From: Raillietiella orientalis
Lineage: Eukaryota
Direction of reading: 5' to 3'
Length of the DNA: 64,000 nt
NCBI GenBank assembly: GCA_036172245.1
Contig: JAYWIR010000072.1
Span: 124,001 to 188,000 of the forward strand
Shown here: in pieces, positions 8,516-59,034 of the stretch
Layout: the number at the start of each line of letters is the position of its first letter
Position numbering within the stretch: the first letter of the stretch is position 1
Program-made: the position numbers and the translations under genes
The notes under the pieces: model-generated
Seen by the model: only the letters and a program-made list of their open reading frames with translations
Told to the model about the DNA's origin: nothing
Databases searched by the model: none

Positions 8516-8518
8516 TTT

Positions 8519-13475: not shown

Positions 13476-13497
13476 CGTCGCCGCCGCCGCGTTCGGA

Positions 13498-13865: not shown

Positions 13866-14260
13866 AGTTACTCCCACCGTTTACTCGCACTTGGTTGAAT
13901 CTCTTCACTTTGACATTCAGAGCAGTGAGCAGAAATCACATCGCGTCAACACCAGCAACGGCCATCGCGATGCTTTGTTTTAATTAGTCGGATTCCTCTT
14001 GCCCGTGCCAGTTCAGCGTCGATCGCTGCAAACCAGCCGAAACGCTCCGGGACCAAAGAGTCCGGTCGCGCGCAGGGCGACCACCGACCGGAACTTCAAG
14101 CGAGGCCGTTCCGGGGTTCGGAATCTCTAGCAAGAACGCCATGGGAGACCATCATCGCTACAGAAAAGGGCGCGCCATCAGAGTGCGCCGCGGGCCCAAG
14201 CGGAACCGCCGGCACGTACGCGCCCCGACCGAGCGGCGAAACGCCGATGTCCCGTTAGCC
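13866..14260 (-). rRNA. 28S rRNA fragment upstream of the insertion site
   Basis: Reverse complement of ...CTCTGAATGTCAAAGTG...GTAAACGGCGGGAGTAACT; corresponds to ~62410-62850. Confidence 0.92.
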
Positions 14261-14289
14261 TGTTCTCTCGTGCCACCCTGCCACAGCTG

Positions 14290-14905
14290 ACGCTGAAGCA
14301 TCGCCTCATGTTCTTACTTTCCTTTCGCCAATCAGGAGCATCTCCCATAACAATCGTGAAACGACTCCACCAAACTCTTCAGCAACAAATACACCTAGAC
14401 CTTCAAGTGGCACTGCTTTAAATGCCCCAGTCCATTCTACGATCGATAATTTCCTCCAAGAAATTCACCCACCCTCAATGGATCAACCCTACTCCCTACT
14501 TCTCTGAACAATTTCGTGCCCCAATTTCCCAACCTAAAAAGAAAGATGAACAATAGAAATCCTGAAGTCCAAATTGATCTCCCTCCTCTTATGCTTATGA
14601 TGTCGTCCTAATTGCGAATTCTCCCCGCAATCTTGAAAATGCCCTCAACCACTTTGCTGCGGCTACCAGCATAGCCCGTTTCACCATCAACCCAAAAAAT
14701 TGTGCCCCTTACCATTTCGTTTCTTTTCTTGAAAGGTCCTACATCGGGTTTGACCCTCTTATCTATGACAGTGCATCGGTAAATTTGCCCTCAACTTTTA
14801 AATTATTCTGCGATCTCCTCAAGCACTGTGGAAGAAGTTGGATGCCATCAAAACGTTTTTCATTCTTTCCCTCGTACACGACCTTCGTTTAGGTAACAAG
14901 CAATT
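14290..14905 (+). mobile_element. RLE retrotransposon subfamily B remnants
   Basis: WKKLDAIKTFFILSLVHDLRLG matches WQKLDAIKRFFLPSLIHDLRLG in the 51876-54371 ORF. Confidence 0.7.
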
Positions 14906-15529: not shown

Positions 15530-15630
15530 GCTAAATCTCTGTTCTGATTGAACTCCAAATAAAACATTTGGGCTATTCTATATATAGAGTAGCCTTTTGT
15601 TAAAGTACCCTCCTTTGGAACCGGTTGATA
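15530..15630 (-). pseudogene. CRESS capsid C-terminal remnant
   Basis: Minus translation PKEGTLTKGYSIYRI vs PKNGNLTKGYPIFRI at ~42400. Confidence 0.65.
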
Positions 15631-18600
15631 GGAAAATAACTATTTTACTAACCTCAAAATATTAACCATTCACTACTGCCTGATGAAAATACACAAACAT
15701 CTTGCGTTGCACTGAATTTTGCATGAATTTCTTGTCACCACGTTCTACCTAATTTTCCAAATACATATTTCGAATATAATGTAGTAACACGTGACTCCTT
15801 CTAAAACAAAAACTAGAAAACTGCCACGTGACAAAAAAACTAAATAAATTTTAGAATCTGAAGTAACAGCCAGTTACTTGAACAGCAAGATTTTAATTCG
15901 CACTAGTTTCACGGGAAAATTCCACGATTTGCAATAGCAACCGAAAGATGTGCCAACATGCCAGTAAGCCATAGATACACTGAACATTCACACATACTTT
16001 CCAACCCTGGGTGCAAGCCCAACCTTGGATGGACTTACCGAAGCAGTTAGCACCTTCAAACATGCCCACCCCTTATATGGGCTCTTTTCATATTAGGATA
16101 CAATCAGGGCGTCATGAAAAGCATTGCCAATTCCAAGATCTTAACATGTACAGATGATCTCGTGATTATTACCAGAAATCCAAACGATCTGCTATCGGCC
16201 TTAGACCTGACTGGGGCACTCACAAAATGAATTGGTGTACTGCCAAACACAAATTAGCGTAACTAACTTCACTGCCAAGCGAAAACACCGACATATCTGG
16301 GAATGACTTTCTTCTCCATTTTCAAGAGCCTCAAGTGTTGCATTCGACTACGACACCATGCATAATTTTGCCGTGCACACAGTACACTGCAATACGATGC
16401 GTGGTACACATTACACGTGAATCATGTGCATGATGTTTTCAGATGTCGTGATGCGGTTTTTCAATGATATAACTTATATTGAAGAGATGCATACATGCAG
16501 ATACATTTGCATAGTGAGTTCACAAAATGACATGTTGGCAACCACCTAAAACATCCGAGTCCTCACAAGCTTAGATTGCACCTACGATTTGAAAAAGTCA
16601 ACTCAACTCTCAGCATGCAACGAAATTACTAACAGCTTACACGTTAGACAACACTAGTGCATCAACTGCAACCCTACTGTCACATTTGACAGAATTGGCC
16701 ATCCAGACTTCCCTCTGGCTGAATGCACATTACAAAACAGTTCAGCAACATGCACAAGCATCCCATGCACATCTCATCAGCACAGCAGGCCCTGATGTAA
16801 CAAAGCATGGCATGAACAAAAACGTTGCAATCCTCAACACTTTCACAGCAGTGCAAGTCCAACAGCTCCACAACCTTTCTTACTAGAATTTACATATCCA
16901 AGTCTCACTGAAACACCTCATTACAAGCAGAACATCCACACATTTTTTTGCCATCCATAAACTCTCCTGTCAACAATCGCCATCACAGTAAACGTGCAAA
17001 GTGGAACGGGACCAAGATGCAGTTCTCAAAACTCTAGTAGGTGCTCTTCCATTGCTTCTTGACGACGTTCTCGATTTCTGATGACTGAAGAAAAACAACA
17101 ACGACATTGCAAGCGAGTGCTTCCGTTCAACTCCTTTCTTTGTTCTGCATCACTGCAAAATAAATCACAAGCATTCCAGCACCTTTCCTTTTCCCGATTC
17201 TCACAGCAATTTTCAAAAAAGCAAAAATTAATTCCTTTACCGTAAAGTGCTCACTGCTAACAGCACCTTCCTTTTCCCATCGATCACATACTCCTCGAAT
17301 GCCTACATGCCTAGCAACCCGACCATTCCACCATCCACACTTTGAGCCACAGCATTTCTTCCCACGTTCCAAACCGAAACTGAACCGTGCAGCGCCACAC
17401 CCACTTCAACCAGAAAGCGCAGCCGCCCCTTTCCCCTCTTCCCGCTCTTTAGCCTCTTCCTGTGCGCTTCAAGATGTGCATTTCGAGGAGGAACAGACAG
17501 CGCGGAGTTCGATCTCCCCAAGTCTTTTGGCAACAACAGCTTCCCTTTTAATTGCACCTTTCCACTCTTCACCACTCTTCAATGATCCTTTCGCAATGAT
17601 TTCCTTACGTCTTCTCCATTGAAGACATTCCTCGGTTCTTCCACCCATGTCGGTGTTCTTGTGCAATCTGAGGTCTCCTCCGAATGCACAAGAGGCTTCT
17701 CACATTCTCCTATCGTCACTTTTACGATTTGTTTGGGAAGTGTTTCATCAGCGGGCGCACTTTTTCAACAAGTACTGCACATGTACACGAAAATGAATCG
17801 AGTTTCAGATTTTCTTATACACAGAAAAGCTGCTTTCCATCGTGAGGACGAAACCAAACCTCGCATAGAAAGGGAGAACCCTTTCCATGCTTGGCTTTTC
17901 AAGATTGGAGATTCGCCAGGGCCTGCAGGGAGATTCTTTCACGGAGCTTCCAAGGATATCAATTTCAATTCAGAACGGTGGTGGAGAGAGAACAGCAATC
18001 GGGCACGTCGGAACGAATATCTCACTTGTCCTGATGGAAAAGTGAGATAAATTGACTTGTTTCAAATTCATTCCTTGCAACACCAGGAATGAATTTGAAA
18101 CAAGTTTGTGTTTGATTAAATTAGGCATAAATTCTACGGATATAAGAACGAAGGAAGGAATCTTTGCATAAATTGATCATTCATTGGAACTGCCTATGTT
18201 GCCTCCGGGACATCAGCCTTCCTGACTTGATGAGAGGACGAAGGGAAGTGCCAAGCTGAACTGCGACAGATGCGGGAAATTTTTCGTTAGACTGCAACTG
18301 TTTCTCTTTCCATGAAATCGAGAAAACTGGTCAAGAAAATAGCATTCTTGTAACAACCACTCCTTCTCCTCGTCACACAAATTCTTTCGAGACCGATGAC
18401 TTTGCGAATTATTGTTTTTTTCTAACCACTGACAATATTTTGCTTCCTAAATGCTGTGCAGCTCCTTTCACATGCAAGAAATTCATATTCTTTATTTTGC
18501 TCTCCATGTGCAAGAGCATTGGTTCCTCCAGAAAATTGGAAGGATAGCCCTTGAATGGATGCTGCCCTTTCTTTATCAAAACTTGGAAAAGCCTTCTCAA

Positions 18601-19785
18601 TGAATTCGGAGTTCACCATCTCACCTGCTCTTCAAATCGCCTCGATTGGCCATTGCAAGCACCAGGATTCGTGCTTCCACCTTTCTTAGGTGTGGATGAA
18701 TTTCAATTAAAACTCACATCACAAGTTGGTTTCTTGGAATACGTGTTTTCCCGAGCTTTCAGTAAGCCTGCATTTCTTCTCCCTAATTTCTCCCCAGAGT
18801 TACGTGAATAAAAGAGAATGCATAAGCCTTTCGTTTTCTGATTTGAGATTTTTAATTGCATGATGTTCAGTGTAAGAAGTCAGCCCGAGTGAAGAAGCTT
18901 CGTGCAGCTCATCAGATTCCACCGAAACCGAGGAAACGTGCCGTCCGACACACGAGTACCTTTTTGATAACCTGGTTATTAAATAGTCTTGTAATTTTGA
19001 ACATCTGCTTCAAAGCCATCTTCAAAATCCGAACCCATGTATCCAACAGATTTTCTTTTCGAGCTGATTTTTGTGTGCATTTCTGTGGAATCGTCATCTT
19101 TAGATTCCTAAAGGAGGATTTTCCTTTCGATCCAAAAACTTTCCTTATATCCATGCAGGGCAACCGCGGCTGCAGGTTATTGCGCAACTGTTTTCTTACA
19201 AAGTTCGGTTTGATCATCCTTTCGAATTTTCCAGTCCGAGGGATTGAGAAACTGTGCTGAAATTCCACACCAAAGGTGAATGCTGCAGTTCTGCACTCCT
19301 GCCGTTCAGCTAAACCATTTGAATGCTATTTTGGCACAATGCTTTTTTCCGAGGCCAACTTACTTGCCTTTTGCCTTTCGAATGCACTGAGAATTAGCAC
19401 GTCTTTGCTGTCCTGAGAATGTTGATGACCTATCCTAAACGAAACAGTTGCATTTACTGTCCACTCTTCCAAATTTCAGGCAGCTGCAACGTTCGCACTG
19501 GGGAAGTGCTCTTGAATGCACTCGGTTGATTGATTGCCTAGTGTGCTGCCAGACTATGATGTTTCCCACTTCCAAAAATTTGAAAATGGGGATTGTCTGC
19601 AATTTTCAGCTGCATAGGAGAAATCCAGTTGTAGCAATCGAGCAATCTTTGGTGCTTCAAAGCAGGAGTTGAGGGTTCCCTGGGAACATGTACATGTTTG
19701 CTGTCTAGCTGTGTTCGATCATATGCTGCCCCTTAGTCAGTTTCTCACATTTGGCGTTCCCTCAACCTAAATGTGGTGAGCGGGT
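15630..19785. repeat. Left arm of a large diverged inverted repeat
   Basis: Collinear reverse-complement blocks: 15630-15870/39455-39700, 15875-16300/38400-38845, 16460-17730/37265-38340, 17735-18270/36250-36722, 18310-18480/34740-34910, 18840-19785/33338-34280. Confidence 0.93.
15900..16300 (+). mobile_element. Decayed RLE RT fragment within the inverted-repeat arm
   Basis: KILTCTDDLVIITRNPNDLLSALDLTGAL (YADD region); mirrored at 38400-38845. Confidence 0.65.
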
Positions 19786-20707
19786 CTCGGATGAAGCACT
19801 CCACGGGAAGTTGTGACGACGAAGACTGCAAGGCATATATGTTTACATGCCGATCGATAAGAGTCTTCATGTCTTGAGGTGTCCCACATTGCTCCGCGAC
19901 TGACTGGCTCTGAAAAGCGTCATTGGGCTGACCACCACTTCAGTCATGAGAATTCAAGCAGGGATGTGCCATGAAAACGGGAGCGTTTTCTTCTACAATT
20001 CAATGACCCAACCACGCCGACCAAGAAGTATGTTTAGTACGAAACAATATGGATCTGAATGTCTCTACCAAACAAGAAATATATATATATTAGTTGTCAG
20101 GGAGCACATGAATCAATTGATATTTACAAATGATAGGATACTGAAGGTGATTGGTTATTCAGATAATTGCCAGGGTGAGAGTGAATCCACATCTGGATCT
20201 GTATTGATTACTACGAGTCTTGCAATATGTAAGAGTTGTACTGTGAGTGTCATTTTCCATACATAGACCAGAAATTGCTACTGCCATGCTGTCAACACTG
20301 GTGAGAGAAAGCACTGTGCCATAATACAAAAGAGGTGATGCAACATGAAGTGTTAAATTTTTTTCCATTGCAGTGAAGGTAGCAAGACGTGCACCAACGT
20401 TTGGAGGCCACATATCACAAAAATGCCACCATATCTTTTAGCCAACTCCGTATGTTTTTCTCCTTCATTTCAAGTGCCACAATAATATGAAACTGTGCAT
20501 TAGTATTTTCGGTTTGACCAAAGACTGATTCCTGAATTTTGTGTGAACGCAAGGGACATATATCACTACTTCACTTACAGTTAATTTGTAGTACTCACTT
20601 GGTGAGTACAGAAAGTGTAACATCCAATTAATACAAAATCATGTGCAACATACGGCAATCTCTCTTTCTTCAAAGCATTCCTCACCGTTAGACAGATTAC
20701 GCCTAAT

Positions 20708-20840
20708 CCCCAGTATTCCATCTCACCAATCCTTTGGCCACCAAAATGTGTTTTTCCATTAAGAAGCTATTGAGTAATCAAACTATAAGGGCGAGTAGAC
20801 CTTGCGTGAATTTTATTCCAAGTATGATTCCAAGACTTAA
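20708..20840 (-). pseudogene. rpoB: Bacterial RNA polymerase beta fragment (Rickettsiales-like)
   Basis: [34 protein letters not shown] vs [35 protein letters not shown]. Confidence 0.9.
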
Positions 20841-21079
20841 TAGACTGTAGAATCGAAAGCTTTATACCCACAGCATTGTTTGCATACGGTGATACGCAAC
20901 ATGCCGCTGCTCCCCATAAATCATTAGGAAAAATGTGACACTACCTCTTCACCAACCTTAATTACATCTCCAACACGCATGCTCACCTATGATATGTGAA
21001 TCTATCTTGATATTATAACGCTTAAGCCATGCAATAGCGTCTTTTGTTCTAGGAATTGGCATGTTCCTCCTCATCGCCT

Positions 21080-21270
21080 GTTATATTCTGAACATCATCA
21101 TATTTTCCAAAATATCCATAAGCTTGATCATAGTTTTCAACTTGTCTTCACTAAGTGATATTTGCTCATTAGGCTTCCAAATTAACTTTGCAACAGATGC
21201 TGTTCTCAGTCCAGATTCTAACCTCCCTTTTGTACTATGAAAACCTGTATGGTCACAAAAAATCCCACAC
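21080..21270 (-). pseudogene. yebC: YebC/PmpR family C-terminal fragment
   Basis: AKLIWKPNEQISLSEDKLKTMIKLMDILEN. Confidence 0.75.
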
Positions 21271-21780
21271 CCAATTTCATACAATGTACAACCCAAGGCT
21301 CGAGCATCATGTGCGATCTGCAGCATTCTGTCTTGCACTGCTTTTGAAGCAAAGTTATACTATTTTTGTTCTCACAAAAATTAATGAACTTTGTGCCAAC
21401 ACAGAGACATCTCTGGAATTATTTGGCATATTTTCTGCTGACAATACACATTCTTCTGCAGCCGCCAGATCACCATTGTAAACATAAATATCTGCTAATT
21501 CTTGATTTGGCCTAAGAACTTGCTTTTTTACAGCTGCTCTGTAATTTTGCCAGCTCATCAGATGCTTCGTACCTATTAAGACTCGATTCAATTATATGCA
21601 AAAGATCAGACTTTGCACCAAGCTCGGGTCTTTCACGCAACTCCTCAAACTTCAACACAGTAAATCGATTATCAAATTCAATCGTATTGCTCCCACGGAT
21701 AGCTATTGTATTTTTCTTTGTTGTTTCTCCTTGCTGGCTCAATGCCTAGTGATACCTGTGATCAAACTTGCTTTCTGTTT

Positions 21781-21985
21781 CAGATGAATTCTTTGAATGC
21801 CATGTTTTTCGAATGTATTTAGCAATATTCTGTCATCAACACACCATTACCAAGGCTGTGCGTTTCTGGTGTAATTTCAGCGTTATCTGAGATGTTTTCC
21901 TCTGCTCTACACAAGTTTTCTAGAATCCGAACTAGTTCTTTTGAAAAATTTGCAATAGCATGCTTTTTGGCAGCATCGAGCTAAC
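21781..21985 (-). pseudogene. grpE: GrpE fragment
   Basis: DAAKKHAIANFSKELVRILENLCRA...GVLMTE/LLNTFEKHGIQRI. Confidence 0.8.
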
Positions 21986-21989
21986 GTAG

Positions 21990-22190
21990 AAGATTGCAAA
22001 GTGTTACATCATTATATTGAAATGCCTGAAAATTGGTTTGGATGTCTTGGAGTGATACTGGCAACTTTGAATTCATCAGTAGATTGAATGTTGCTGTTGC
22101 AAATAAACAAGGTAGCTTAGCAGAGTTAATCGCTCAAATGAACAGTGACATCACAAATGTGAAGGTAAAATCCAGATTACAAAACTTCTT
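21990..22190 (+). pseudogene. spoT: RelA/SpoT C-terminal ACT domain fragment
   Basis: VWMSWSDTGNFEFISRLNVAVANKQGSLAELIAQMNSDITNVKV. Confidence 0.65.
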
Positions 22191-22604
22191 CACAAAGCAG
22201 CCGGAAAAGCATATACCTCTTTGGTGAGAGAATTTATAGTGAAGGCTTTATAAGAGCAAAGATGATCTGTATGCTAAATGCTTTGTACTCAGAACCAGGT
22301 GAGCTTGAAGTTGATATAATTTTAATTAATTAAAGAGTCAGTTGCAAACATGCTTTACAATGACATAAAAATGTTGTGCAATACCAGAGTACAGCACAGA
22401 CTGGGATAAAGATGATTGTGATGCGTTTTATGAGCAACTTCTTGCAAATTCAGAAAAATGCAGGAAGTCTTGAAATCATAGCAAATGATGGGATTCATTT
22501 TGGATCTGGTGTGCAGGTTGAGATTGCCAACTAGACTCAATAAAATTTGCTGCATGCGCATATTTTATTCTAAAAAAGTATCATCAGTGTCAGGGTTTCA
22601 CAGA

Positions 22605-22712
22605 ATGGCTATAGCTGTTTTGATGCCAGCTCTTTCTCCTACAACGAGTAAAGGAAATGTTGCAAAATGGATCAAAGAAGAAAGTGATTTGTTAGAACCA
22701 GGACAGATGATC
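22605..22712 (+). pseudogene. pdhC: Pyruvate dehydrogenase E2 lipoyl-domain N-terminus (alphaproteobacterial type)
   Basis: MAIAVLMPALSPTTSKGNVAKWIKEESDLLEPGQMI. Confidence 0.8.
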
Positions 22713-22944
22713 CAAGACAAAGATATTGGAGGCTATTCTGGAGTCAACTTCAATCTTCGATATGCCAGGAACAGGTCTAATAAGTCAGCTATGTACTATA
22801 GAAAAGGTTTTATTTAGGTTTCCTGATTATTTTCCTGACATCACTTCAAAATTCGAAGCTATCAGAATTGATCTGCAAGAGGTTAACCACACAGTTGAGC
22901 GCAAAAGATCAGAACTCATTATTAATGAAGATCTTCATTTGCGT

Positions 22945-23200
22945 ATGCTTCAATTACTACATATCTAAAAAGATCAACTATCTCTGCTATCCTGGATTGG
23001 TCTTGGAAGAATTTTCTAATTTCTGCAGTAGTAATTGGTCCAAGTCCATTAATGTTTATCAAACCTTCCTCATCTGAAGTTTTCACAGCAGAAAAAAAAG
23101 TTGTCAACGTCACCGTAGTGAGTGGAGAGTAACTTTGCAGCTGATTTTCCAACACTTCCAATGACAAGTGAGTATATAAAGTTCCCTAGAGAAATGTTTC
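22945..23200 (-). pseudogene. ligA: NAD-dependent DNA ligase HhH region fragment
   Basis: SLGNFIYS...SDEEGLININGLGPITTAEIRKFF. Confidence 0.7.
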
Positions 23201-24014
23201 TTGACTTCTGATTCATCCTTGATCATCCACGTATCCTGAATAGCCGACCTAGATTTATTGATAGATAAAAGTGAATGGATCACTATGTGAAACCACGCAG
23301 TTTGAAGAGAAATAAGATTTGCACCAAGATCTTCATACAGCGTAATGAATATACACGAATCACGTTTCTCAGGATGTCAAGCGACCAATTCCTTATCGAA
23401 AAATAATTTGTATTGCAAGCAGGAGCAAACCTTAGCGAATTACGCTTGCTGCGGTTTCAGGGGAGCTTATGTGGATTATATTGCCTGCATATCTATTTTC
23501 TAAAAGACTAGAAATAGAATCTACTTTGCGCGTAGGAACCATTTTTGCTATTTCTGCATTACTAATTGCTCGCTTTTCTAATAAAAGCTTCTTAAGGAGA
23601 GCACTTAATACGAGTCTTGCAGTCTCATTCCATATTTTATGATTCTGGATGATCTGGAATCAAGCTATTGTCTTAATGTGGGCTAAGTAGTCTCTTTCAC
23701 TAAGGAGTCCCCGGTTCTCAGCTCGCATGTCAAACAGATGTCAAACATGTCAATATAATTCGAGAATCAAGGCATTATCTTGTAAAAACTCTCTACCACT
23801 CTTTGGATAGTTCAATGCATTCCATATAAGTCCTATACCTGAAGAGCCAGGCAGAGCCTTCTTTAAAAGCTCCTGAAACTGCTATAAACTTTGTATGCGC
23901 CAAGATTATCCAAGTTTCGTGCAATCTCCCATGAAAGCTTATGTCGCTTGAATACGGCAGCTTTGGAATCTCCAGAAATAGCAGTTTGTACCTCAGAGCT
24001 TATAGCATTCCTCT

Positions 24015-24330
24015 GCTCAAAGTATGTTCTTATGTATGTATCGGCTTCAGCTTCAACTCTATTTGGGAATAATCAGCGCATAATAGGGTGCATCCCTCTT
24101 TAGCTATGAATGCTTCTCTGATGCTTGCACCATCTTTAGTTTTTATTAAGATATTTCGTGTTTTGAAGAGAATCGGCCAGTTGCCCTTACGGTCAGTTCA
24201 AACGTTGCATGTAGCCTTTTAGCAATAGGGTTGATTGAGTTCAATGTTGCTTTCCCTACACTTCTTGGCCCTTAAAATAAAAGCGCGTGCGGCAACCTAT
24301 CTGAAAGTACAGAATCTAAAAAAGAACTTG
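24015..24330 (-). pseudogene. polA: DNA polymerase I fragment, internally deleted
   Basis: RLHATFELTVRATGRFSS; KTKDGASIREAFIAKEGCTLLCADYSQIEL; EADTYIRTYF. Confidence 0.88.
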
Positions 24331-24464
24331 GAGATTTTATCATGTCCATACAGATCATTATTTTTCATAGGGTGTCACGCAAATCATCTCCAACTGAATG
24401 TATGGAGTTTCGCGGCACTATTGAACTTGGAATTTGCATCGAATTCATATCAACAACATGTCAC

Positions 24465-24610
24465 GAGACGGACCGATCTCTAGCGTTTTCAAGCCACTTT
24501 CCAAACAAGCCATCTTCAAAATGCTCTGGAATCCAGTTCATCTTCTGATTATTTGCGATCATTTGTTCTTGAAGCGCTGTAGCCTTTACATACCAAGAAT
24601 GAACCCTCTC
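24465..24610 (-). pseudogene. ileS: Isoleucyl-tRNA synthetase (type 2) fragment
   Basis: SWYVKATALQEQMIANNQKMNWIPEHFEDGLFGKWLENARD. Confidence 0.88.
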
Positions 24611-24659
24611 GAAATCAATGGAGACCACGGAACGAACTTACGTTCGTTTGCTCAGAGGG

Positions 24660-24925
24660 CATATAAGACCTGCAAAAGCAATATTCCCAGAAGGTACGAA
24701 CTAGAGGAAGCCAGCTAGTTGCTTTAGCACGCTTTGATGTTTGGCAGTATGGATGCAGTGATAGACATGGGCACTGGGCATGGAGCAGGGCATTTCCTAT
24801 CGGTACATGGAGGCCCGCAGAGCATAGGATATGGCAGAAAGGTTGTCCCGCTTCGGGCTTGCATGGTGCTGTCAAATGAAAGGATAGGATTTCATATGGA
24901 TGGAGAATATGGTATCGAAGGTTTG
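24660..24925 (+). pseudogene. pepP: Aminopeptidase P (M24) fragment
   Basis: GTGHGAGHFLSVHGGPQSIG...VPLRACMVLSNE..GFHMDGEYGI. Confidence 0.85.
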
Positions 24926-25459
24926 TAGGATCTTTAGCGTAAGTTCTGCAACTTTACTGTCTTCGTACATGAAGGGTTTTCTTCTATGTGTGTATTGCTT
25001 GAGATTGCTCCATCTATTTCTTGCTAGAAAGCCTAGGTGCGTTGTAGGTTTTGGTGATAAGATAATTGCATACTTTTGCAAGAGTTTATCTGTGTCTTTT
25101 CCAGATACTGTTGGGTTGCCAAGCACTGTATTAAATAATGGCTTTCTTTTCGTCCAGTAAAATCTCTGATGGTTAAACGTCAGTTTAGCACGGTCAGTAC
25201 TGATGCCTTGTAAATAACGATGGCCATAGAATGGATAAGCAAATGCTTCCGGTTCCAGGCAAACGAATTCTGGTTTTGGATAATGCACGTTATGTTTTGG
25301 CAAGTGCCGTAACTTCCTGCAGTCCCTTTTGTACCAACTCGTCTTCAATGTGTAAAATAACTAAAAGTCGAAAGACACTTGCCTTGTTGCTTGCTCTCGG
25401 CCTTGTCTTCTTTTCGTATTACCATAAGAAGACATAATTAATATATGAAATGGAGCGTC

Positions 25460-25900
25460 ACTCTAGATGCAATAGTAGTAAGTGAATATGCTGATCGTAA
25501 AGTAATTAAGGGAGCACCTTTGCAGGGTGCATTTACTGCTGCTGCAACGCATATGTTTCGGCCGATCTTGACATCCACATTGGTGAAAATCATAGTATTT
25601 TCTCCTCTTCTATTTTGGCCTGGAGTTCTTTAGCAATTTACGCACCACTTGCCAATTACTGCTCATTTCATATTAGGCAACTCTGCTTTTTGCTCTCTTT
25701 TTCCAACTTGGTCCATTATTTGGAAAGAGCAATGCAATACATCAAGATGACGTAGCTGCGATGAAAGCATCAGAAGAAGGAGACTTTGAGAATTAAGGCA
25801 CATTCTCCAAGTTGTATACAAAGTGCCTATTGTATGTCTTGGATCGTGCTAAAGTTTTTGTATATGCAGTAATTGCTGGGATCATTGCAGTGCTGTTAAA
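25460..25900 (+). pseudogene. RND efflux permease (AcrB/AcrD/AcrF family) fragment
   Basis: DAIVVSEYADRK...MFRPILTSTLVKIIVFSPLLFWPGVL*QF.HHLPIT. Confidence 0.85.
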
Positions 25901-26829
25901 CGTAGGCAGGGACGTTTCAGACAGAACTTGCTTGGAAAAAGGGTATATTACTGAGGGCGTTCTGCGATCGTTGTGGGGCCTGAATTAAAGTGTGGTCTTC
26001 CAAAGCAAATGGCGCTTGAGCTACTCAAGCCATCAAGAGAGCAGAACCTGCCTCAAAATTGATTAGTTACTATACAGTGCATATTAAATATATATGAGCA
26101 AAGCATGCCAACAACTGAGTGAATCACGTTCTATTGTAAACTATGAACACCTGCACTAATCCTAAGTATATCCAAACATTAAACTGTCTAGAACACAATT
26201 GTCAGACAATCATCCACGCCTGGTAATAGAGGCCATCGAGCAGTTGTACAGAATGTTGCGCGCAATCTGAAAGGAAGGCCGTTGGGAAATCGTAGCTGGA
26301 AAGCTGCGTGCTCAGGGTTCAGAGCTAATCACGGGTTTCAAGAAAAACATGAAAGATTCAGACAGCCGCAGGGCAACTTAAGCAGATCTGCCACATACAG
26401 CACACAAGACATAGATCAGCAACCAATTTCTTGGCAAACCTATTTGCTAAGGAATTAGTTTTCAAAAATCTTTCTGACGCAATGTTATCAATGCTTCTGC
26501 CAGAAACTGCTGGAGTGAAAACCGTGCTCTTGACAACTGACACAGCAAGTGAAGATTCAGTTTCTAAGAGAAGAAGAACAATTGCGGAAAACAGAACGTA
26601 CCTTATGATGATAATAAAGGCACTAGCAAATATACAGATAGTAAATAGTACCTTGTCAATGCAAAATGTAGTCCCTCTGCACGAAGGAAGTATGAAATTC
26701 TATAATGAAAATCCATTGTATTGGAGCAGATAATTGAGCTCAGATCCGACAATACAACAATTCATGCAAAGTGCTGATTCTTCCTCTGTACATAAAAAGT
26801 TCCACCTGGTAATTGCTCTAAAGATGGAT

Positions 26830-27115
26830 GACATGAAGGTTTCAAGTAAAGTGACGTTGCGATGGGTCTTGTTGGCTGCAGCTTTTTGCTATGGCATAGA
26901 CCTTCAGCGTGGGCAGAAGGATGCACTGCTGTTTCTGACAGGGTATGTCATAGAGCTTGCACAAAGTTCTGACAATGTATGTATTCTTATGTATTTAATG
27001 TATTCATATTGTTTTTCGAAATTTGCAAGACTAAGAAACAATTTCAACATAAGGTCTTGTTTATAGGAATCTTGAGCGCAATTGTAATGCGACTTTGGTT
27101 TGGGATATTCTACTT
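26830..27115 (+). pseudogene. terC: TerC/Alx family membrane protein fragment
   Basis: ALLFLTGYVIELAQSSDNV; QHKVLFIGILSAIVMR. Confidence 0.85.
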
Positions 27116-27719
27116 TGGTAGGATTTCATGTCGGAAGATCAAAAAGATCCATAGCAAAAGACTGGAGAACCCACTTCCAAGAGCCTTGAAACGGCTAGAG
27201 AGGAAAGGGATGTGGTGACTTCCAGAGAAAATATTACCTTTCTGTTATTTACGTTTTTTACTGTATCTCTCTACTTTGGAATGCGTCTGATTATGAAGAG
27301 TGCTACAAAAATATTAGCTCCATACACGTGTAATATCTCAGCTGCTAAAGAGTAAAGGGCTGACGCGGGCAAGCGCTCAGAATATTCTTTGTGCGGTCAG
27401 CCAGCAAGAAGGCTGCCTGACATTAAAAGGTAACATTGGAGAGATAGAAATTTCTGCAGAGCACGTGAGAAGTATATTGATCTCAGTACTCTGACGACAC
27501 TTCACGTCATACACTCAAGAGCAAAGCATGAAGCATTTCTTGTCACTATTAGTGACGAAAAATTAATTAAAGCTTTAGGCATCAAAACTGGTGCCAAGTA
27601 TTTTGCACTCAAGCATCAAAAGCCTTCTAATGTGACAGACTTAAAAGAGTTAGCAAGCACCAGAAGAGAACATTGGATGGAAAAGCAGGGTTATGCCAAC
27701 TTCTACAGTATGGAAGGAA

Positions 27720-28405
27720 CAGGTAGGAACTGGGGACATCCCCCGAAACCCTCATCAGCGATGAGAGCATAAGCACCAGGGGGACCAGCTCTGCCGCGAA
27801 GCAGTGATAAAATTCCGCAGGCAGCCCATCCTCGCCTGGCTCTCTTCGTCTCTTGAGCTTCGCGATTGCAGAGAAAATTCCCTCCGCCGTGAAGGACTCG
27901 TCGAGACGTGAGCGTTCCTCTTCTGACGAGCAGAAGTCCCCCAACGGTACGCCAAGGTAAATACCTTGGCGTACCGTTGGGGACTGGCCGTTCACCTGGC
28001 CGCGGGGATCCCCGAACGGATCCAGTCAGGACGTCCAGCCCACGTCGCACTAACCGCCACCACTGACGACTTTGCCTTGTTCACCCTTAGTCCCATCCCG
28101 CGGCTTAGCAGATCGAAGAAATCCTTGACTGCGGCTGCCTGGGTTGACATGGGTAATAACAGCAGAAGATCGTCAGCGTACGCTGCCACGGCAGGCGTGC
28201 CGGGGCACGAGCTCGGCAAGGGGGCCAAAGTCGCACTATACGCTCTCAGCACCAACTCGAAGTAGGTGTTAAAGAGCAGGGGACTGAGGCTGTCGCCTTG
28301 CCGTATCCTACGCCGCACCGGCACGCCGAAGGAAACGTTGATGAGCGCGTCGCGCCAGCTGGAGCGCAGAAACTGATAATAAGGCCGGGAAGCCCAAGCG
28401 TTCCA
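27720..28405 (-). mobile_element. Tx1/L1-like RT fragments in rearranged order
   Basis: IRQGDSLSPLLFN, AYADDL, GLRVNKAKS (27992-28324), followed on the minus strand by the upstream motif PGEDGLPAEFY (27720-27930). Confidence 0.85.
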
Positions 28406-31319
28406 GAAGTTCCAGAAGTTTTTTTAGTATTTTTTAGTGCACAACCACCACTAAGATTGTTCTTTATTCAGGTATAGCAAGTTATTGTTTGGGTTCCGCC
28501 ATTCAAAATTTCAAGTCGTGTTTCAAATTGGCCCGGCCAGCAGTCTGTTTTGAGGCAAACAGTGTTATCGCTTGTGATTCCTTGAGTCTGTGACTGAAGT
28601 GTTTCCAACAAGCGTAGTGGTGATTAGGAAAAAAAGGAAAAAAGACTATGTTTCAGCACTCCAGACAATTGAAACAGGGTTTGTGGAAGAACAGGTTGTA
28701 AATTCCATAGAGATGTCGCTCAAAGAAGTGGACAGTCCATTTTGAGTTCAGAGCAACCATTTTTCCTGAGCAAGTCGGAATGAAACCGTGCAGCGCTAAG
28801 GCAACGCGAATGCAAACAGTTGGAGTGTAGACGTCAGCGCAACGTCCCCATTTGAAATGGAAGAGATAGACACAAAAGAAAGGGGTGGTGTCTCACGCAT
28901 GAGGCAAGATTAGAGGTGCCAGGAATAGATCCATTTCTTTCCAGACGTTTGATTCTTGTGTTGAGCTTGCATTCCAGTTTCACGAACGCTTGAAAGCTTG
29001 CGGGAAGAATGTTGGTAAACGCTTGCCCTAATTTACGACCAAATGCAGATGGATGGGTCACGCCAGTCGGTCTTCATAAAAATGGCTGATTACGGGACAT
29101 CTTTGCAGTGCCATCCGCGGGAGCAGCAAGGTCGAGTTCAGCAACATTCGAATCGAAATCGACAGTTCGAATCACGAGGAGAGCGGTCGTAACACCTCCT
29201 CTCCGACGACTTCGGCCTGCAATGGCTCACCGCTAGACAGAATCCGATTGACCACGTTCTGTATGGCGAAGACGAGCATCCAGAAGTACCAAGATATTGA
29301 AGCCCTACTCTCGGATCAGCCTCTCTTGCAGTTCACCTTGATGATGGAAAACAGCTTCAGAGCTGCGCTGCTCTGCACGCCCGAACGGTTGGTGATCGTT
29401 TCGATTTGCCGATACGTTTGTCGGTCACCAGAAGCTGATGGAGTTGACATTGCAGGACGCCGACATCCGCAGGGTCGACGAATGGCATCGGTTGAAACGC
29501 ACGATCCACCTATTTCCGAATGTCTTTAAACACTCTCTAGCTTGAAATTAGGTATCTGCATAAACCATGAGTCCACCGATACCTCTGTTAATTTTCACCA
29601 TCTTCCAAGTTTATATCAGCCTTCAATAAACTTTGCTTAAGGAGCGAAAAGCAATGGTCTCTGCTTTCTGCTGATAGTTCAGATGTCTCCGTTCCCAAAT
29701 CATCTTCTAACGCCTCTCTTCAGTATTTGATTCCCTGTTTGGTCGCTGCTCATTAGCTCGTTCTCCTTGCAAGCGTTAAGTTCTGCAAATCCTGAGGGGT
29801 CACTCATACTTTCCCCTAGCAGGGTTAGGTAATATATTGTGCACAATATGGGTCAAACGATTTCCACAACAACATGTTGGCTAATCTGAAAGGCTGATTT
29901 TCTGCGGTAGGTCGAGATGTTTACTTAAACTTTCCTTCAACTAATAAAGATGTCTATTAGAATAAATTTGCAATTGTGCCACAGAGCACTAAATAGCACA
30001 TGTACCTAAAATGTATAGTTTTTATTCTTCCATACCCAACTGAAGTTCCTAAACCTTGCTAATATTCTTGGAATTGCCAAGTGAATTTTTCTTATTTGCT
30101 TTTCTCTTAAGCGTCCGTGCATTGAGTCAAAGTTTAACATAGAAAATGATTTACTTCATGATAGAATCTAGAGTGTTGTTGGTAAAACATTTATGGAAGG
30201 GCGATAATATGTCTAATTTGAGCCAAAGTCGGAAACACTGCGCAAAACTTAAAATACAGTCTTTATTAATCTTAACAACTTTGACACGAAACGGCAGTTC
30301 CATATATGCCGATAGAGCAGTTATCAATGGATGTGATGAGGTACAGCATGGAGGAAAGATCATGGAAACACATAGCATCGAAAGAGGAACCACAAATATG
30401 TGCTCATAGAATGTTAAAATACACATCCGATGAAGATGTGGCGATTCTTCCACCGTTCTTTCTGTAGGGTCTTTCTCTTGATAACGTGTTACTGGCTCAA
30501 CAAGAGAAAGACCCTTCAAGTGTGGTGCTTCGTTGGAACTGTCCAGGAGGTTTACAGTTTCGATAAAGGGGAAGCTGGCTACAGAAAGCACAGTGGAGGA
30601 ATCGCCAGTAGGCTAATCAAAGTCCATCGCAAAGTGGGAAACATGCTGTCAATCGAAGCCTACACATTCCATAATTGTTTTTACAACAGGCCTAGCTGGG
30701 AATGACAGACGCTTGGCATCCCTGAAAACGGCACGATTGGTCCGTAAGACCCATCTCCTGTTGAAGGGAATAATGATTTTGAAGAAACCTACTTCTTGGA
30801 GTTCAATTTACCAGTAGATGTTACCATCTTGTGAAGTAAACTGCAAGGATGACAGTTTTGGGGCTTTTTTCATGAAGAACCACTATGTAGGGGGGTCGCT
30901 ACAGGGTGAATCAGCTGCTAATTCAGTATCTGGCCATCGGTTCAGTAGTGGGAGGCGCATGTGATTGCCTACTTCTGGGGTCCGCTAAAGCAGCAAGAGC
31001 AACTTCGGAAACCATGGTATCCGAGCAAGTGACCAAGAATGAATCTGCTACCATACTACGAGCTTCTTGCACTGTCAACATCTCACTGAGACATCGGTCG
31101 CCCGTATGCGTAAAAATAAATTTATTAGGCGAGCCTGGAGACAAATTTGCCTAATGTTTGATCAGCTTGTTTCATCTTGTCCAGGAAGGAACGATGTTGT
31201 TCCCTCTGCGTGGATTGTGAACTGGGAAAGGTGCAAAGCAAGATTCCACGGAATCTATTTTCCACTACGGGACAAATGATTATTGGGAACATTGCGGAAT
31301 TGTACAGAAAAAAAGGCTC

Positions 31320-32250
31320 TAAGTATGTATATATTTATTGATGGAAAAGCGATAGAAAACGGCAACCCTACACATGAAACTAATAAGATGCACATTTGCA
31401 AGGGTTGATGTACAATGCAGCATCGAACGTGTACTCAGTGAGGGCTGCGAGGGCCAATTGCAAATCTTCACGAGTATTTGCCGAGAGGGTGCATCATCAT
31501 TAGCATAAGGCAAGGGCATGACTGAAGGGTGTCCATGGAGTACAATTTCAATGAATGGCTCGAGTGCAATGTTCAACAGCAATCCACCGAATGGACACTT
31601 TTGCCGTACGCCTCCAAAAACGCTGATATTGTCTGCGCAGACCAACACGCATCCAATCTTATATGGGAGGAGATTGCTATACAGATCTCGAATGAGTACA
31701 CAAAAGTTGCTGTCAACACGGAAGGATTGCCATGTTCGAAGGACGAGTTCATGAGAAACACAAGTAGGGACATCTTTAAAATGTTCCGAAAATATAGCAA
31801 CATTCCGATGATGGACTCTGCAACGATCGAGTAATGTGCTCATGAGGAAAAAAATTTTCAGTGCAATCGTCCAACAAGTAATTTGCTAATGATTTTTTCC
31901 ATTTCCTTCGAGATCGCAGGGAGGGGGAATCGGGCAACATGGGAGAGATCGGACGCGGCAGTTTTATGAATAAACACTGTTTGCAAGGACTTCCAATTCT
32001 TCAGAATTTTATTAAAATGCAAAACACGTAACAAAGAGGGCAGTTAGACACGAAAACTCCAAGTCAGCCTTCAAGAAAGTTTAACAAGAGATACCATGGT
32101 TCCTGAAAAATGAAGAAAGTCAGCTCCGGGGTGAATGAGGAGAGGGTGGTTTCGTTTGATGAATCCCAGCTCCACTTGAGAGCCACCAAAAACAATCTCT
32201 AAGGAAGGCACACATTTCTTCTACTAGTGCTGACGCTCTCCCAGGTAACT
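31320..32250 (-). mobile_element. Decayed RLE RT fragment (subfamily B-like)
   Basis: LLDRCRVHHRN, GVRQKCPFGGLLLNIALEP, PLPYANDD. Confidence 0.8.
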
Positions 32251-33337
32251 TTGGAAGATCCTCAAGAAATCCGAAAAGAGATTTTGCCTTATTGATGGAA
32301 AGAATAATTTTATAGTGAATTCAACTGCTCTAACAACATGTGTTCGAGGTAAATAACCACAAGCAATTATACATTCTCAAGTTGATGTAAAACCTATAAG
32401 GTATCCAGCTGGAGGAATCTTTGGCAACCACCTTTTTTGCATTAATATGACCAGTTGCTGTAGAACGAGATGAAATGAATTCTTTCTAGCTCACCATCAC
32501 ATCTCTCCTTACATCAATCCTTATCTTCTTATCCTAGCACTATCGTTTCTTTGCTCAAGCTATTGAGGTTCTTCATTCAGCTAGTGGAAAACTTCAACAT
32601 AAAACACAGTATCCCAACTAGGGCCAGTGTTTCCAGGAATTTACTTTTTAAAACATTCTCATCTCTATGTAACAGGGGTCCTTGCTTTCCAGGTTTTGGT
32701 CCCCTCCAACACCTCTGAACTTTACATTGACATCTGTAAAAATCACTTGTAGAAATAGTTTTTAAAGTTGGGAACTATTCTTACCGCAGTTGGAAATTCA
32801 TGCGACTAAAATCCTTCACATAAAGTGGCTGTAGAATGCAAATTCTGCAACACCATTTTCCTTGAACTATGCAACTGTAGCAGGTGACCGAAGTGTGGAA
32901 AACAAACCTTCACAGATGCCTAAGAGATTTAGCTTGGTTTGAGAATTGCCACTTTAATCTTTGATAACTTCTGAACAAGCCATTCAGAATATATGTTGCA
33001 TAAATATGAAATCCTGCACATGGTCAGCAAACTATTATGCATCTGCATGTGCTGCAGCAGTTCCCAAACACAAGAGAAAGCATGCATCACCCATTCTTAC
33101 ACCAAGCATTTGGAAGTTGTATCAATGAAAAACATGTTCCAGCAGAGACTTACAATTCTGCAATCGAATATCCAGGTTTTGGAATATGTGCAGCCTTCCA
33201 CAAACCGAGCTTGCAAAACTGGGCTTTAGAAACTCAGAAGACATGGAATGCTTCTTTGGAAAACACATCACGTCTCAAACACTGAGAGCTTGGTGTACTC
33301 CTTTCAATCCATAGAGTGCGAACTTTACCTGAAGGCC

Positions 33338-36300
33338 ACCACATTTAGGTTGTGGCAACGCCAATTGTGAGAAACTGATTAAGGGGGCAGCATGTGATCT
33401 CACACTGCTAGACACCAAACGGGTACATGTTCCCAGGAAACCATCAACTCCTGCTTGGAAACACCAAAGATTGCTCGATTACTACAACTGGATCCCTCCT
33501 ATGCAGCTGAAAATTGCATACAATCCCCATTTTCCGATTCCTGGAGGCGGGAAACACCATAACCTGGCAGCACACTAGGCAAGCAATCAACGTAGTGCAC
33601 CCAAGAGCACTTCCCCATTGCAAACGTTGCAGCTGCCTGGATTTTGGAAGAGTGGACAGTAAATGCAACTGTTTCGTTTAGGATAGGTCATCAACATACT
33701 CAGGACAGCAAAGACGTGCTAATTCTCAGTGGATTCGAAAAACAAAAGACAAGTGAGTTGGCGTCGGAGAAAAGCATTCTGCCAAAATAGCATTCAAATG
33801 GTTTAGCTGAACGGCAGGAGTGCAGAAGTGCAGTTTCCTCTGCAGCATTCATCTGTGGTTTGGTTTTTCGATGCCTCGGACTCGAAAATTCTAAGGGATG
33901 ATGAAACGGAACTTTGGATGAAAACAGTTGCTCAATAACGCGGAGCTGCCGTCGCCCTCCGCGGATGTGAGAAGAGTTTTCGGATCCAAAGGAAAATCCT
34001 CATTTAGGAATCTCAAGGCGACGATTTCACAAAAATTCACACAAAAGTTAGCTTGAAAAGAAAATCTGTTGGATACATAGGTTCAGATTTTCAAGATGAC
34101 TTTGAAACATGCTCAAAGTAACAACACCATTTAATAACCAGATTTTCAAAAATGTACTCACTTGTGTGTCGGACGGCACGTTTCCTCGGTTTCGGTGGAA
34201 TCTGATGAGCTGCACGAAGCTTCTTCACTCGAGCTGACTTCTTACACTGAACATCATGCAATTCAAAAATTGAATTCTGAATTCAAAAAAAGAAAAAGCT
34301 GTTTGTCGATGATTGTTTCGCGTACGCTTGAGCACGTGCTGCATTTGAATAGTGAAGGGTAGTTTGGATTCGGATATTTTTCGTTTGTCTTCGGAAGAAC
34401 AGCAATGATATCGATGAGAGGTTACCCGTTTTCTAAATAGTCACTATATGTAATACATGTGGTGATTTCTTGTCTTGGTAATCTTGTTTTCTACTGTAGC
34501 CACTTGAAGGCAGATGAGTCCATTCAAAAGAGCAAGTGATTCTCCAGTGTTCTGAGATGCACTGTTCCTGAATGGTTTGGGAAGAAACACAATAGGCATG
34601 TGGTGCCACAATTTGGGAAAGTAATGAGCACATCATAGCTAAAGCACTTTGGAAAGTTGATTTGCATCTATTATGCAGTGGATGGGTCTACTTTAGTTCA
34701 TGGATTTCACACTGGTGACACAGCAAGAACAAAGAGCATTTCTTGCATGTGAAAGGTTTGAAACCCTCCAGCTGCACAGCATTTAGGAAGCAAAATATTC
34801 TCAGTGGTGAGAAACCAATAATAACTTGCAAAGTTATCGGTCTGAACAGAATTGCTGCGATGAGGAGGAGAGGTTGCTACATGAATGCCAGTTTTTGTGA
34901 CCAGTGTTCTGGATTCCAAGGAAAGAGAAACGGCAGAAGATGGAAGGCATAGGTTCCAGGGGGTTCTGTAAACTGGAACACTATCATCTTGGCTATGCTG
35001 AAGATGCAGGAGCATCAAAGATTCCTGACGTACGTTCAGGCAGGAAAAGGGAGAAGTTTTCAGGCTAAGGATAGGAATGTTAAAATGATTGGCGTAGATG
35101 ACATCTGAGAAACGATTAGGAATGAACAAAAGCATTGGACTGGAACTGCAAATAATGGTTTGATTTCCACTGTACATGTAGCATGTGCTTTGGGGGTAAT
35201 AGGAAAGATGTGAGGCTCGGTGTCATCAAGCTCACCCTCAAGAAAAAAGCTAGAATGCTTCTAGCAAGCTGCGAGTCATTTTAGCAATGTGGAAACAGAA
35301 GGTGAGCAGTTCAGTCTTTCAATGTGGGTAGACAAGTATAGGCCTACCAGCAACCTGGAAATGGTAGGACAGCAGAGTCTGTTAGTAAGCTTCATACATG
35401 GCTCCAAAATTGGCAGGAGAATAGGCGGCCTGCCCACAGATCTCTCCATGCATGCAAGCAGGTCTTAAGGTGGTTTGGTTGCAATTCCATTCAAAAGTTT
35501 TTAGGTGTAGTTGCAAAATAGTGCTGATGCAGCATACTTTAAAGCAATCACATAGGTTAATCAATCTTTCACCTGGCCAAGTATCATGTCCTTCTGATTA
35601 GGGCAAGCACTGCTACACTGACTGAATGTTACAAATGCAAGGTTAAAGCATCCTTCGCAAGCAGAGGAAGCACCTATTCTTAGACATCAGATTTTACTGT
35701 TGCAGTCCAAAGAAAAAAGTTATTTTGTTATGATCATGGAGGAAGTGAGTAAGTTGGAAAAGTAAGTTTCTTTGCTCTTATGGGTCCATTTAGCAGCACA
35801 GAGTGCTTGCAGACCAAAATGTTTGCTGGAAAACTATCAGCAGGAAAGAAGAATCAGGGAAGAAGAAAACTCAAGCATTGAAGGAAACGGCTCTCTTTTG
35901 TAATTGTTTCCGAAGTTTGTGTTTCCACGTGCTGCACAAGAGGAAATGCTCCCTTGTTGCATGGAATTCCTTGTGTCCCAGCATCCCAAGAAAGGGGGTG
36001 CCTCTTATGCAGGGAAGAATCGTTCAGGAGAATGGAGGGAGGAGTGCAAATCCCTGCACAGTTGGGTCCTTCGCATTCCTTGCAGTATGCTGGCGAGGTC
36101 CTCTGCATGACTTTCCAAGTGGAAGCACCTCGAGCCCACCTGTAAGATCCCGATGTGGAAATGAGTGACTGCTGCTGTGGAGTCCAAAGCAAGGGGGAAG
36201 GTTGCCCGGAGAGGAAAAGAGTGCACTAGAAGGTGCACGAATTATTCGATTTTCCAGCATGTGGCGCCGTTTGGTTTGGCACTCCCCTGCGTCCTTTATA

Positions 36301-59033: not shown

Positions 59034-59034
59034 T

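Follow-up and report, generated by a model that had tools for sequence, protein, structure and literature searches.

Rickettsiales have left non-functional fragments of their genomes in arthropods and filarial nematodes, where they are known as nuclear Wolbachia transfers (nuwts or NUWTs), and in Brugia adjacent nuwts can stem from different parts of the Wolbachia genome (PMC3849323, PMC12693587; here and below, published systems are described from the accessible parts of the sources). Nuclear 'cassettes' of Spiroplasma and Midichloria DNA occur in Ixodes ricinus and I. inopinatus; one Spiroplasma cassette of ~19 kb consists of 26 pieces of different homology, and most Midichloria stretches measure <0.1-0.4 kb (PMC11617991). 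Here we analyse 64,000 nucleotides of Raillietiella orientalis DNA (GenBank assembly GCA_036172245.1, contig JAYWIR010000072.1, positions 124,001 to 188,000 of the forward strand; hereafter the window), in which positions 20264-27336 are, with high confidence, a dead, end-joined mosaic of Lariskella-like origin.

The mosaic is a nuclear symbiont insertion of a known kind, to which nuwts and the tick cassettes belong, whereas its Lariskella-like donor is new; a literature search found no nuclear transfers from the genus Lariskella. A sequence look-up turned up no near-copy of it. It is close to the Ixodes cassettes in that Midichloria and the present donor are members of one family, but the donor is Lariskella-like and the 24 pieces are packed with no intervening host DNA. 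The mosaic is also much older, as shown by an identity of 74-91% compared with 92-98% in the ticks. Gene-sense orientation and breakpoint composition, both analysed here, are not treated in the accessible part of the Ixodes report (PMC11617991). Like nuwts, the mosaic represents a transfer of non-functional Rickettsiales fragments to a host. It differs from them in donor genus and in its many very short pieces, which form one block, come from random donor positions and are ordered block-wise by gene sense.

Direct joining of several non-adjacent donor fragments is also seen in complex organelle insertions (numts, nupts and 'numins'), where non-contiguous fragments meet before or during integration and the joints carry hallmarks of non-homologous end joining (PMC6215612). 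These insertions have an organelle source and usually few fragments per locus, whereas the source here is bacterial and the fragments number at least 24. Finally, the PIWI-interacting RNA (piRNA) clusters of Aedes contain clusters of endogenous viral elements (EVEs) among unidirectional retrotransposon fragments (10.1101/127498). As in Aedes, foreign fragments lie in what appears to be a strand-polarised transposon graveyard, here with probably virus-derived Rep fragments in the polarised right arm. The Aedes EVEs, however, derive from RNA viruses and sit beside long terminal repeat elements of the same orientation, whereas the fragments here are bacterial and no retroelement partner was found.

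The locus is a natural record of how degraded foreign nucleic acid gets stitched into an animal chromosome, and its resolution is unusual: 24 pieces and 42 breakpoints have been mapped, and 16 junctions between pieces have been read base by base. Two measurable features are not part of the customary account of such relics: cuts that follow T, often within TpA, and blocks of common gene sense.

Extent and content of the mosaic

When all 64 kb were compared by blastn with the 1,592,871-bp contig of the Lariskella-type genome G149, all 24 high-scoring segment pairs fell within 20315-27336. The other ~57 kb of the window gave no G149 match by blastn, and separate searches of the three remaining window parts were likewise empty. 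Restricting the query to 19500-28000 returned 23 significant matches at 74-91% identity, and a translated search of G149 (tblastn) added only a longer extent for piece 1. Together with two conjugation-gene pieces, the 22 pieces that match G149 make up a bacterial mosaic at 20264-27336. These 22 pieces are 93-426 bp long (median 229 bp), cover 67% of the mosaic and share 74-91% of their nucleotides with G149 (blastn). Across 146 stop-to-stop open reading frames (ORFs) of at least 33 amino acids in 19800-27900, NCBIfam matches were short, lay on both strands and belonged to many unrelated families of bacterial housekeeping genes. The window contains no N, and reverse-transcriptase ORFs of long interspersed nuclear elements (LINEs) flank the mosaic on both sides, so that it is embedded in eukaryotic repeat DNA. 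The pieces are listed below with their strand by gene sense, their position in G149 and their nucleotide (nt) identity to it.

20264-20408, minus: piece 1, part of a donor ORF of 1825 amino acids; G149 359194-359347; blastn 20315-20403 at 89%; tblastn 63-65% amino-acid identity over 20264-20408; no NCBIfam family
20698-20817, minus: piece 2, rpoB; G149 1241011-1241132; 84% nt; NCBIfam rpoB
20834-21084, minus: piece 3, dapE; G149 69938-70200; 78% nt; donor ORF is DapE (2.2e-142)
21085-21360, minus: piece 4, yebC; G149 1285966-1286242; 86% nt; blunt joint with piece 3
21614-21694 (approximate), minus: piece 5, F-type TraC (conjugation ATPase); 22/27 amino acids identical to protein P0003; no G149 counterpart
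21701-21986, minus: piece 6, grpE; G149 478254-478547; 82% nt; NCBIfam GrpE
21991-22190, plus: piece 7, spoT; G149 915740-915949; 84% nt; joined head to head to piece 6 over the 4-bp filler TAGA, the first sense flip
22196-22454, plus: piece 8, part of a donor ORF of 120 amino acids; G149 838697-838951, paralogue 688436-688557; 76% nt; strand classifier +9.8; no family
22456-22708, plus: piece 9, lptC 3' end, 76-bp spacer and pdhC 5' end; G149 249562-249829; 84% nt; donor ORFs are LptC and pyruvate dehydrogenase (PDH) E2
22710-22940, plus: piece 10, recN; G149 1040372-1040602; 88% nt; RecN 6.8e-95
22940-23211, minus: piece 11, ligA; G149 917867-918137; 85% nt; overlaps piece 10 by 1 bp, tail to tail, at the second sense flip
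23435-23659, minus: piece 12, type IV coupling protein (TraD/TrwB-like); Pfam TrwB_AAD_bind 27.3 bits, cut-off 20.5; no G149 counterpart
24053-24238, minus: piece 13, polA; G149 1390697-1390892; 80% nt; NCBIfam PolA
24243-24403, minus: piece 14, dapA 3' end and holB 5' end; G149 1122274-1122433; 91% nt
24470-24623, minus: piece 15, ileS; G149 1453065-1453219; 84% nt; NCBIfam IleS
24624-24648, no strand: 25-bp filler at the third sense flip (head to head); hairpin with 7-bp stem, DNA fold of -6.2 kcal/mol including 5 flanking bases on each side
24649-24915, plus: piece 16, pepP; G149 975788-976049; 74% nt; donor ORF is an Xaa-Pro peptidase
24912-25138, plus: piece 17, murG as two collinear blocks, 90 bp deleted between them; G149 473650-473731 and 473822-473966; 86% and 91% nt; MurG 9.7e-67; 4-bp overlap with piece 16
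25466-25891, plus: piece 18, RND efflux permease; G149 99075-99508; 83% nt; NCBIfam
25902-26031, plus: piece 19, rpoC; G149 1243052-1243190; 88% nt; NCBIfam rpoC
26356-26455, plus: piece 20, IS982-type transposase remnant; G149 1249543-1249640 (no ORF of at least 60 amino acids there); 80% nt; NCBIfam IS982 1.2e-4
26502-26716, plus: piece 21, TAXI TRAP solute-binding protein 3' end; G149 815823-816037; 86% nt
26725-26817, plus: piece 22, uppS; G149 299275-299368; 82% nt
26817-27096, plus: piece 23, terC; G149 1187123-1187385; 80% nt
27099-27336, plus: piece 24, fliR 3' end and flhB 5' end; G149 108302-108539; 87% nt; right edge of the mosaic
20409-20697, 21361-21613, 23212-23434, 23660-24052, 24404-24469, 25139-25465, 26032-26355 and 26456-26501, no strand: stretches without an assigned source

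A preliminary description of this DNA had placed a shattered Rickettsiales genome at 20100-27720. The bacterial mosaic does lie there, over a slightly narrower span. NCBIfam and BLAST against G149 agree with 12 of the 13 genes it had named (rpoB, yebC, grpE, spoT, pdhC, ligA, polA, ileS, pepP, the RND or acrB-like gene, terC and the tentative recN). In place of its tentative pgsA (near 26600) lie the TAXI TRAP-transporter piece (26502-26716) and the uppS piece (26725-26817). Pieces beyond that list come from the 1825-amino-acid ORF, dapE, the 120-amino-acid ORF, lptC, dapA/holB, murG and rpoC, as well as the IS982 remnant, TAXI, uppS, fliR/flhB, TraC_F and the type IV coupling protein.

The donor

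The yebC fragment is 73% identical in amino acids to protein P0001, which its source labels as YebC of 'Candidatus Lariskella endosymbiont of H...'. Among 401 genomes of the order, P0001 is present at 99% identity in G149, with the next best genome at 59%; the name Lariskella rests on this source label together with the 99% match. Within the donor family (47 genomes, six candidates scored per genome), the other 46 genomes reach at most 81% identity, and only on rpoB, rpoC, ileS, pdhC and the RND gene. G149 was reached through an order-wide search centred on a Rickettsiales metagenome-assembled genome. A search of genome contigs with the yebC fragment gave no match; the same kind of search with P0001 gave at least 80 alphaproteobacterial loci, and the Lariskella genome was not among the matches listed. 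The top match in a representative search, P0002, was a repeat protein without a BLASTP alignment and was discarded.

Taken together, the yebC label, the G149 matches and the divergence point to a close relative of a sequenced Lariskella (Midichloriaceae) as the donor, and not to an unknown lineage; the preliminary description had allowed for an unknown symbiont. The mosaic documents a past heritable association of the host lineage with a Lariskella-type symbiont.

Two pieces have no counterpart in G149. The ORF at 21515-21700 (minus strand) matches the F-type TraC P0003 at 22 of 27 residues, and P0003 itself scores as TraC-F-type at 2.2e-84; TraC_F is absent from G149 and present several times in the family genomes G404 and G162. 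Homologues of the coupling-protein ORF of piece 12, at 40-43% amino-acid identity, occur in nine of the 47 family genomes, G149 not among them, and a tblastn search against plasmids found nothing for it. These two conjugation pieces indicate an F-type conjugative element in the real donor that is missing from G149.

The stretches without an assigned source have a GC content of 0.36-0.42, like the pieces, and on this ground are probably donor DNA absent from G149. They gave no blastn or tblastn match in G149, and family-wide protein searches and searches for protein homologues were empty. Compared by blastn with 400 Rickettsiales genomes, 23212-24052 gave one 31-bp, chance-like match only. PHROGs matched none of 29 ORFs, and across 35 ORFs Pfam returned TrwB_AAD_bind and one sub-threshold GPCR match only.

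As for the G149 contig itself, long ORFs cover only ~73% of it and its cumulative GC skew peaks at ~680 kb and is irregular beyond 1.2 Mb, which suggests pseudogenes and rearrangements. G149 also carries IS982-type copies.

Scatter, joints and cut sites

In G149, the pieces are spread from 70 kb to 1,453 kb over 1.59 Mb. Six pairs lie less than 10 kb apart in the donor, compared with 2.9 expected, so that clustering is not significant (P = 0.07), and neighbours in the window are no closer in the donor than after shuffling (P = 0.77). Of the 21 neighbour pairs, 20 are separated by 77-791 kb; the rpoC and IS982 pieces are ~6 kb apart in opposite orientation. The sole collinear pair consists of the two murG blocks with the 90-bp deletion between them. 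The preliminary description had named collinearity in a donor genome as the observation that would speak against it; mapped on the best available donor genome, the pieces are scattered.

It had also described the fragments as directly abutting and had called for inspection of the junctions. Read at base level, the joints have fillers of 0, 1, 1, 2, 4, 4, 5, 8, 10, 16 and 25 bp, or overlaps of 1, 1 and 4 bp, in line with direct abutment. The fillers are not copied from the surrounding 300 bp or less; one of six tested was marginal (P = 0.048). Three pieces cross gene borders (lptC-pdhC, dapA-holB and fliR-flhB), and the genes are co-directional each time; the lptC-pdhC spacer contains no terminator-like site. 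The pieces are not biased towards gene 3' ends, their mean relative position being 0.53 (hand calculation).

Breakpoints were located on the donor sequence and turned to the sense of the gene, which gave 42 ends. T precedes the cut at 25 of these, compared with 29.4% expected (P = 4.7e-5), and TpA spans it at 11 (8.4% expected, P = 5e-4), whereas A after the cut is not enriched (17/42, P = 0.24). This preference for T and TpA makes the pieces resemble products of endonucleolytic cutting rather than of copying that switched at arbitrary points. Scatter, direct abutment and T|A breakpoints together argue for cut fragments that were joined end to end.

The gene content is like that of a length-weighted genome sample, with recN, ligA, polA, holB, murG, uppS and flhB present. 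No ribosomal-protein, tuf or groEL pieces are among the mosaic genes, and an Rfam search of 19000-34000 gave no rRNA, tRNA or other RNA-family match.

Decay and position in the locus

By codon position, mismatches to G149 amount to 11.5% (first, 1475 sites), 10.8% (second, 1478 sites) and 21.4% (third, 1475 sites), with 423 transitions, 221 transversions and 49 indel events. Even the best-conserved genes show 7-8% differences at the first two positions (rpoC 6/87, pdhC 5/70, holB 7/92, flhB 11/139, spoT 11/133 and the RND gene 24/285). From these values we infer a neutral decay inside the host of ~7-9% substitutions, and the donor's own difference from G149 would then lie mainly at third positions. 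With ~11% mismatch at positions 1 and 2, this number of indels and many stops, the mosaic is not part of a living genome.

The mosaic forms the left part of a 13.6-kb spacer (19779-33336) between the arms of an inner inverted repeat.

15630-19778, no strand: inner inverted repeat, left arm; collinear inverted match to 33337-39698 at 77-86% identity
33337-39698, no strand: inner inverted repeat, right arm; arms of 4-6 kb

This agrees with the placement at the centre of the locus in the preliminary description, since the spacer lies between oppositely polarised arms. The repeat arms differ by 14% substitutions (518/3687), or 12.7% without the outermost block. As the arm divergence is roughly twice the decay of the mosaic, repeat and mosaic may be of similar age. 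Palindrome centres are break-prone, and the position in the repeat spacer would link symbiont capture to breakage at such a centre.

Origin of the mosaic

We favour, with moderate confidence for the statement as a whole, a route by which DNA fragments of a Lariskella-like symbiont were cut, end-joined and captured at a chromosome break, and then decayed neutrally. At least 24 fragments of ~90-430 bp would have been cut from random places of the symbiont chromosome and from a conjugative element, and host end-joining repair would have linked them end to end. Entry into the host chromosome would have been as a single concatemer, or in quick succession, most likely at a double-strand break at the centre of the inverted repeat in this retrotransposon-rich region; the mosaic has decayed neutrally ever since. 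The data show the identity of the donor, the scatter, the anatomy of the joints, the decay, the place in the repeat spacer and the block-wise gene sense; a single event, capture at a break and DNA rather than RNA copies as the joined material are inferred. DNA is the default reading of the source nucleic acid, and we prefer it because the gene content resembles a length-weighted genome sample and includes no rRNA or tRNA.

Several observations weigh against this account. First, the gene sense of the 24 pieces falls into only four runs (P = 2.4e-4; 1.25e-4 given 11 minus and 13 plus pieces), which define the following blocks.

20264-21986, minus: block 1, large ORF, rpoB, dapE, yebC, TraC and grpE (6 pieces)
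21991-22940, plus: block 2, spoT, 120-amino-acid ORF, lptC/pdhC and recN (4 pieces)
22940-24623, minus: block 3, ligA, coupling protein, polA, dapA/holB and ileS (5 pieces)
24649-27336, plus: block 4, pepP, murG, RND, rpoC, IS982, TAXI, uppS, terC and fliR/flhB (9 pieces)

Ligation of double-stranded fragments does not predict such blocks. Secondly, among ends that carry a single feature on the sense strand, T before the cut is commoner than A after it (14 versus 6, P = 0.02). Thirdly, ~29% of the mosaic lacks an identified source, although the F-type conjugative element of the donor is probably behind this DNA as well. Lastly, one DNA run (0.11 of sampled words; contigs of 270 bp or less) matches inside the mosaic at 23278-23545 (one difference) and 26485-26651 (none), and in the flanks, but no host-bacterium junction is present in its contigs, which leave parts uncovered and may come from the source sample itself. 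Of the contigs from this run that match 17000-35000, about half continue into dissimilar sequence, and for several the identity is only 88-95%; these could be further diverged copies of some pieces, or could come from a related bacterium in the sample.

The sense blocks hold when only the 22 G149 pieces are counted (P = 7.4e-4), and when the two least certain of these are left out (20 pieces, P = 2.2e-3). Relative to the donor DNA strand, the pieces are oriented at random (12 runs of 22, P = 0.60), and with respect to the direction of replication, taken from the donor GC skew, they show no clustering either (16 runs); both were rejected as alternatives to polarity by gene sense. The sense pattern was spotted post hoc and three definitions of orientation were tried, which brings the corrected significance nearer to 1e-3. 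A strand classifier trained on donor ORFs, 86-92% accurate on mutated fragments of 200-300 bp and correct for 18 of the 22 real pieces, assigned four of the five large source-less stretches to the sense of their block; 25139-25465 scored opposite. The 'mixed strands' of the preliminary description therefore hold for the DNA, but not as random mixing, and its contrast with 'the polarised arms' falls away, the pieces being themselves polarised by gene sense. The strand asymmetry of the cuts is only suggestive, as T-before exceeds A-after by 13 to 7 when counted on the donor strand and by 12 to 8 when counted on that of the window. Together with the weak bias of the cuts towards the sense strand, the blocks hint at a single-stranded intermediate of sense polarity.

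Such an intermediate would be provided by an RNA-templated origin, which we regard as unlikely, albeit the most serious competitor of the DNA route. Bacterial mRNA fragments would have been copied by a reverse transcriptase or an RNA-copying repair polymerase, with template jumping from both 3' ends of a break. Each extended end would yield a block of one sense, minus on the left and plus on the right, as in LINE twin priming. The observed order (-)(+)(-)(+) equals two such (-)(+) units, or one unit and one inversion. Clustering by gene sense but not by donor or replication strand is as this route predicts, all three border-crossing pieces run between co-directional genes, the excess of T before the cut is what cleavage after U would give, and most of the large source-less stretches share the sense of their block. 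Precedents are reverse-transcribed mRNA captured at breaks in mouse zygotes (PMC4516963) and virus-transposon hybrids proposed to arise by template switching for mosquito EVEs (10.1101/127498), but neither involves bacterial RNA in the accessible parts of these sources.

Set against this is the lack of any rRNA, tRNA or other RNA-family piece in 19000-34000, even though rRNA dominates bacterial RNA, and the lack of highly expressed genes among the pieces. The block ends carry no poly(A) or poly(T) and no target-site duplication is seen; no retroelement domain lies inside the mosaic, and the closest LINE fragment has the opposite sense. One source-less stretch contradicts its block, bacterial mRNA would have needed a path to a nuclear break, and the pattern that speaks for RNA was the one found post hoc. 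If true, the RNA route would explain the four sense-coherent (-)(+) blocks and the cuts after T (U) on the sense strand, and would be the first evidence for the fixation of bacterial symbiont transcripts in animal genomes, by the route proposed for RNA-virus EVEs. Should sense blocks recur in further host patchworks, the DNA-only view of bacterium-to-animal transfer would need revision; if not, this is an ordinary symbiont fossil. The concatenation of degraded symbiont DNA proposed in the preliminary description is supported as regards scatter, end-joining-type joints and the cut signature; given the four sense blocks, either DNA or RNA may have been sampled.

Entry of the DNA fragments together, as we favour, can be set against their serial capture, in which the locus centre, as a palindrome centre or a piRNA-cluster-like trap, would have taken up single fragments repeatedly over a long period. 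The break-prone nature of palindrome centres speaks for this scenario, but we consider it improbable. The joints of 0-25 bp leave no host sequence between pieces, and there is no Lariskella match elsewhere in the 64 kb. Moreover, the mismatch rate at positions 1 and 2 is homogeneous among the four orientation blocks (chi-square 3.3, 3 df, P = 0.35), which fits one event or a short episode.

Erosion by many deletions of a single large collinear insert, which might have been as long as an entire bacterial genome, is close to refuted, and we give it very little credence. The murG pair is collinear over its deletion, and Rickettsiales genomes can be heavily rearranged, so that the gene order of G149 need not equal that of the donor. 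However, nearly all neighbour pairs are separated by tens to hundreds of kilobases in G149, and the closest, rpoC and IS982, are in opposite orientation. A loss of 99.5% at only 7-9% substitution needs very many large deletions with nearly coinciding ends, and the breakpoints carry the nuclease-like T|A signature. An assembly artefact or contamination, with reads of a live symbiont misjoined to host DNA, is the least credible explanation of all: the one DNA run is of low coverage and shows no junction with the host, but the decay at codon positions 1 and 2, the indels and the many stops, the lack of N in the window and the short DNA-run contigs that match inside the mosaic and its flanks all contradict it, and no assembler makes 24 joins of mid-gene pieces of 100-400 bp.

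The surrounding locus

The window contains the following reverse-transcriptase and virus-like ORFs.

4591-5313 and 11571-12449, plus: reverse-transcriptase ORFs, left arm
27995-28423, minus: spacer fragment of a host LINE reverse transcriptase, to the right of the mosaic; Pfam RVT_1 3.3e-11
40815-41153 and 43415-44221, minus: circovirus-like Viral_Rep ORFs; E values 9e-11 and 9e-15
51879-54383, 54861-55316 and 55320-57431, minus: reverse-transcriptase ORFs, right arm

Reverse-transcriptase ORFs are on the plus strand in the left arm (2/2) and on the minus strand in the right arm and spacer (4/4), so that the LINEs and virus relics of the arms face the centre. Pfam gave no match on 95 ORFs of the left repeat arm and the rest of the spacer, nor was there one in the right repeat arm. 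Between the outer arms (1-14300 and 46000-64000), LINE families are shared only in inverted orientation, at 63-83% identity, and the GC skew changes sign at ~22 kb. Judged by its sequence, the layout is that of a strand-polarised transposon graveyard and resembles a piRNA cluster.

The two Viral_Rep ORFs are probably endogenous relics of a circular Rep-encoding single-stranded (CRESS) DNA virus. A direct repeat joins 40749-41265 with 43635-44146 at 69% identity, and both ORFs share the orientation of the right-arm LINEs.

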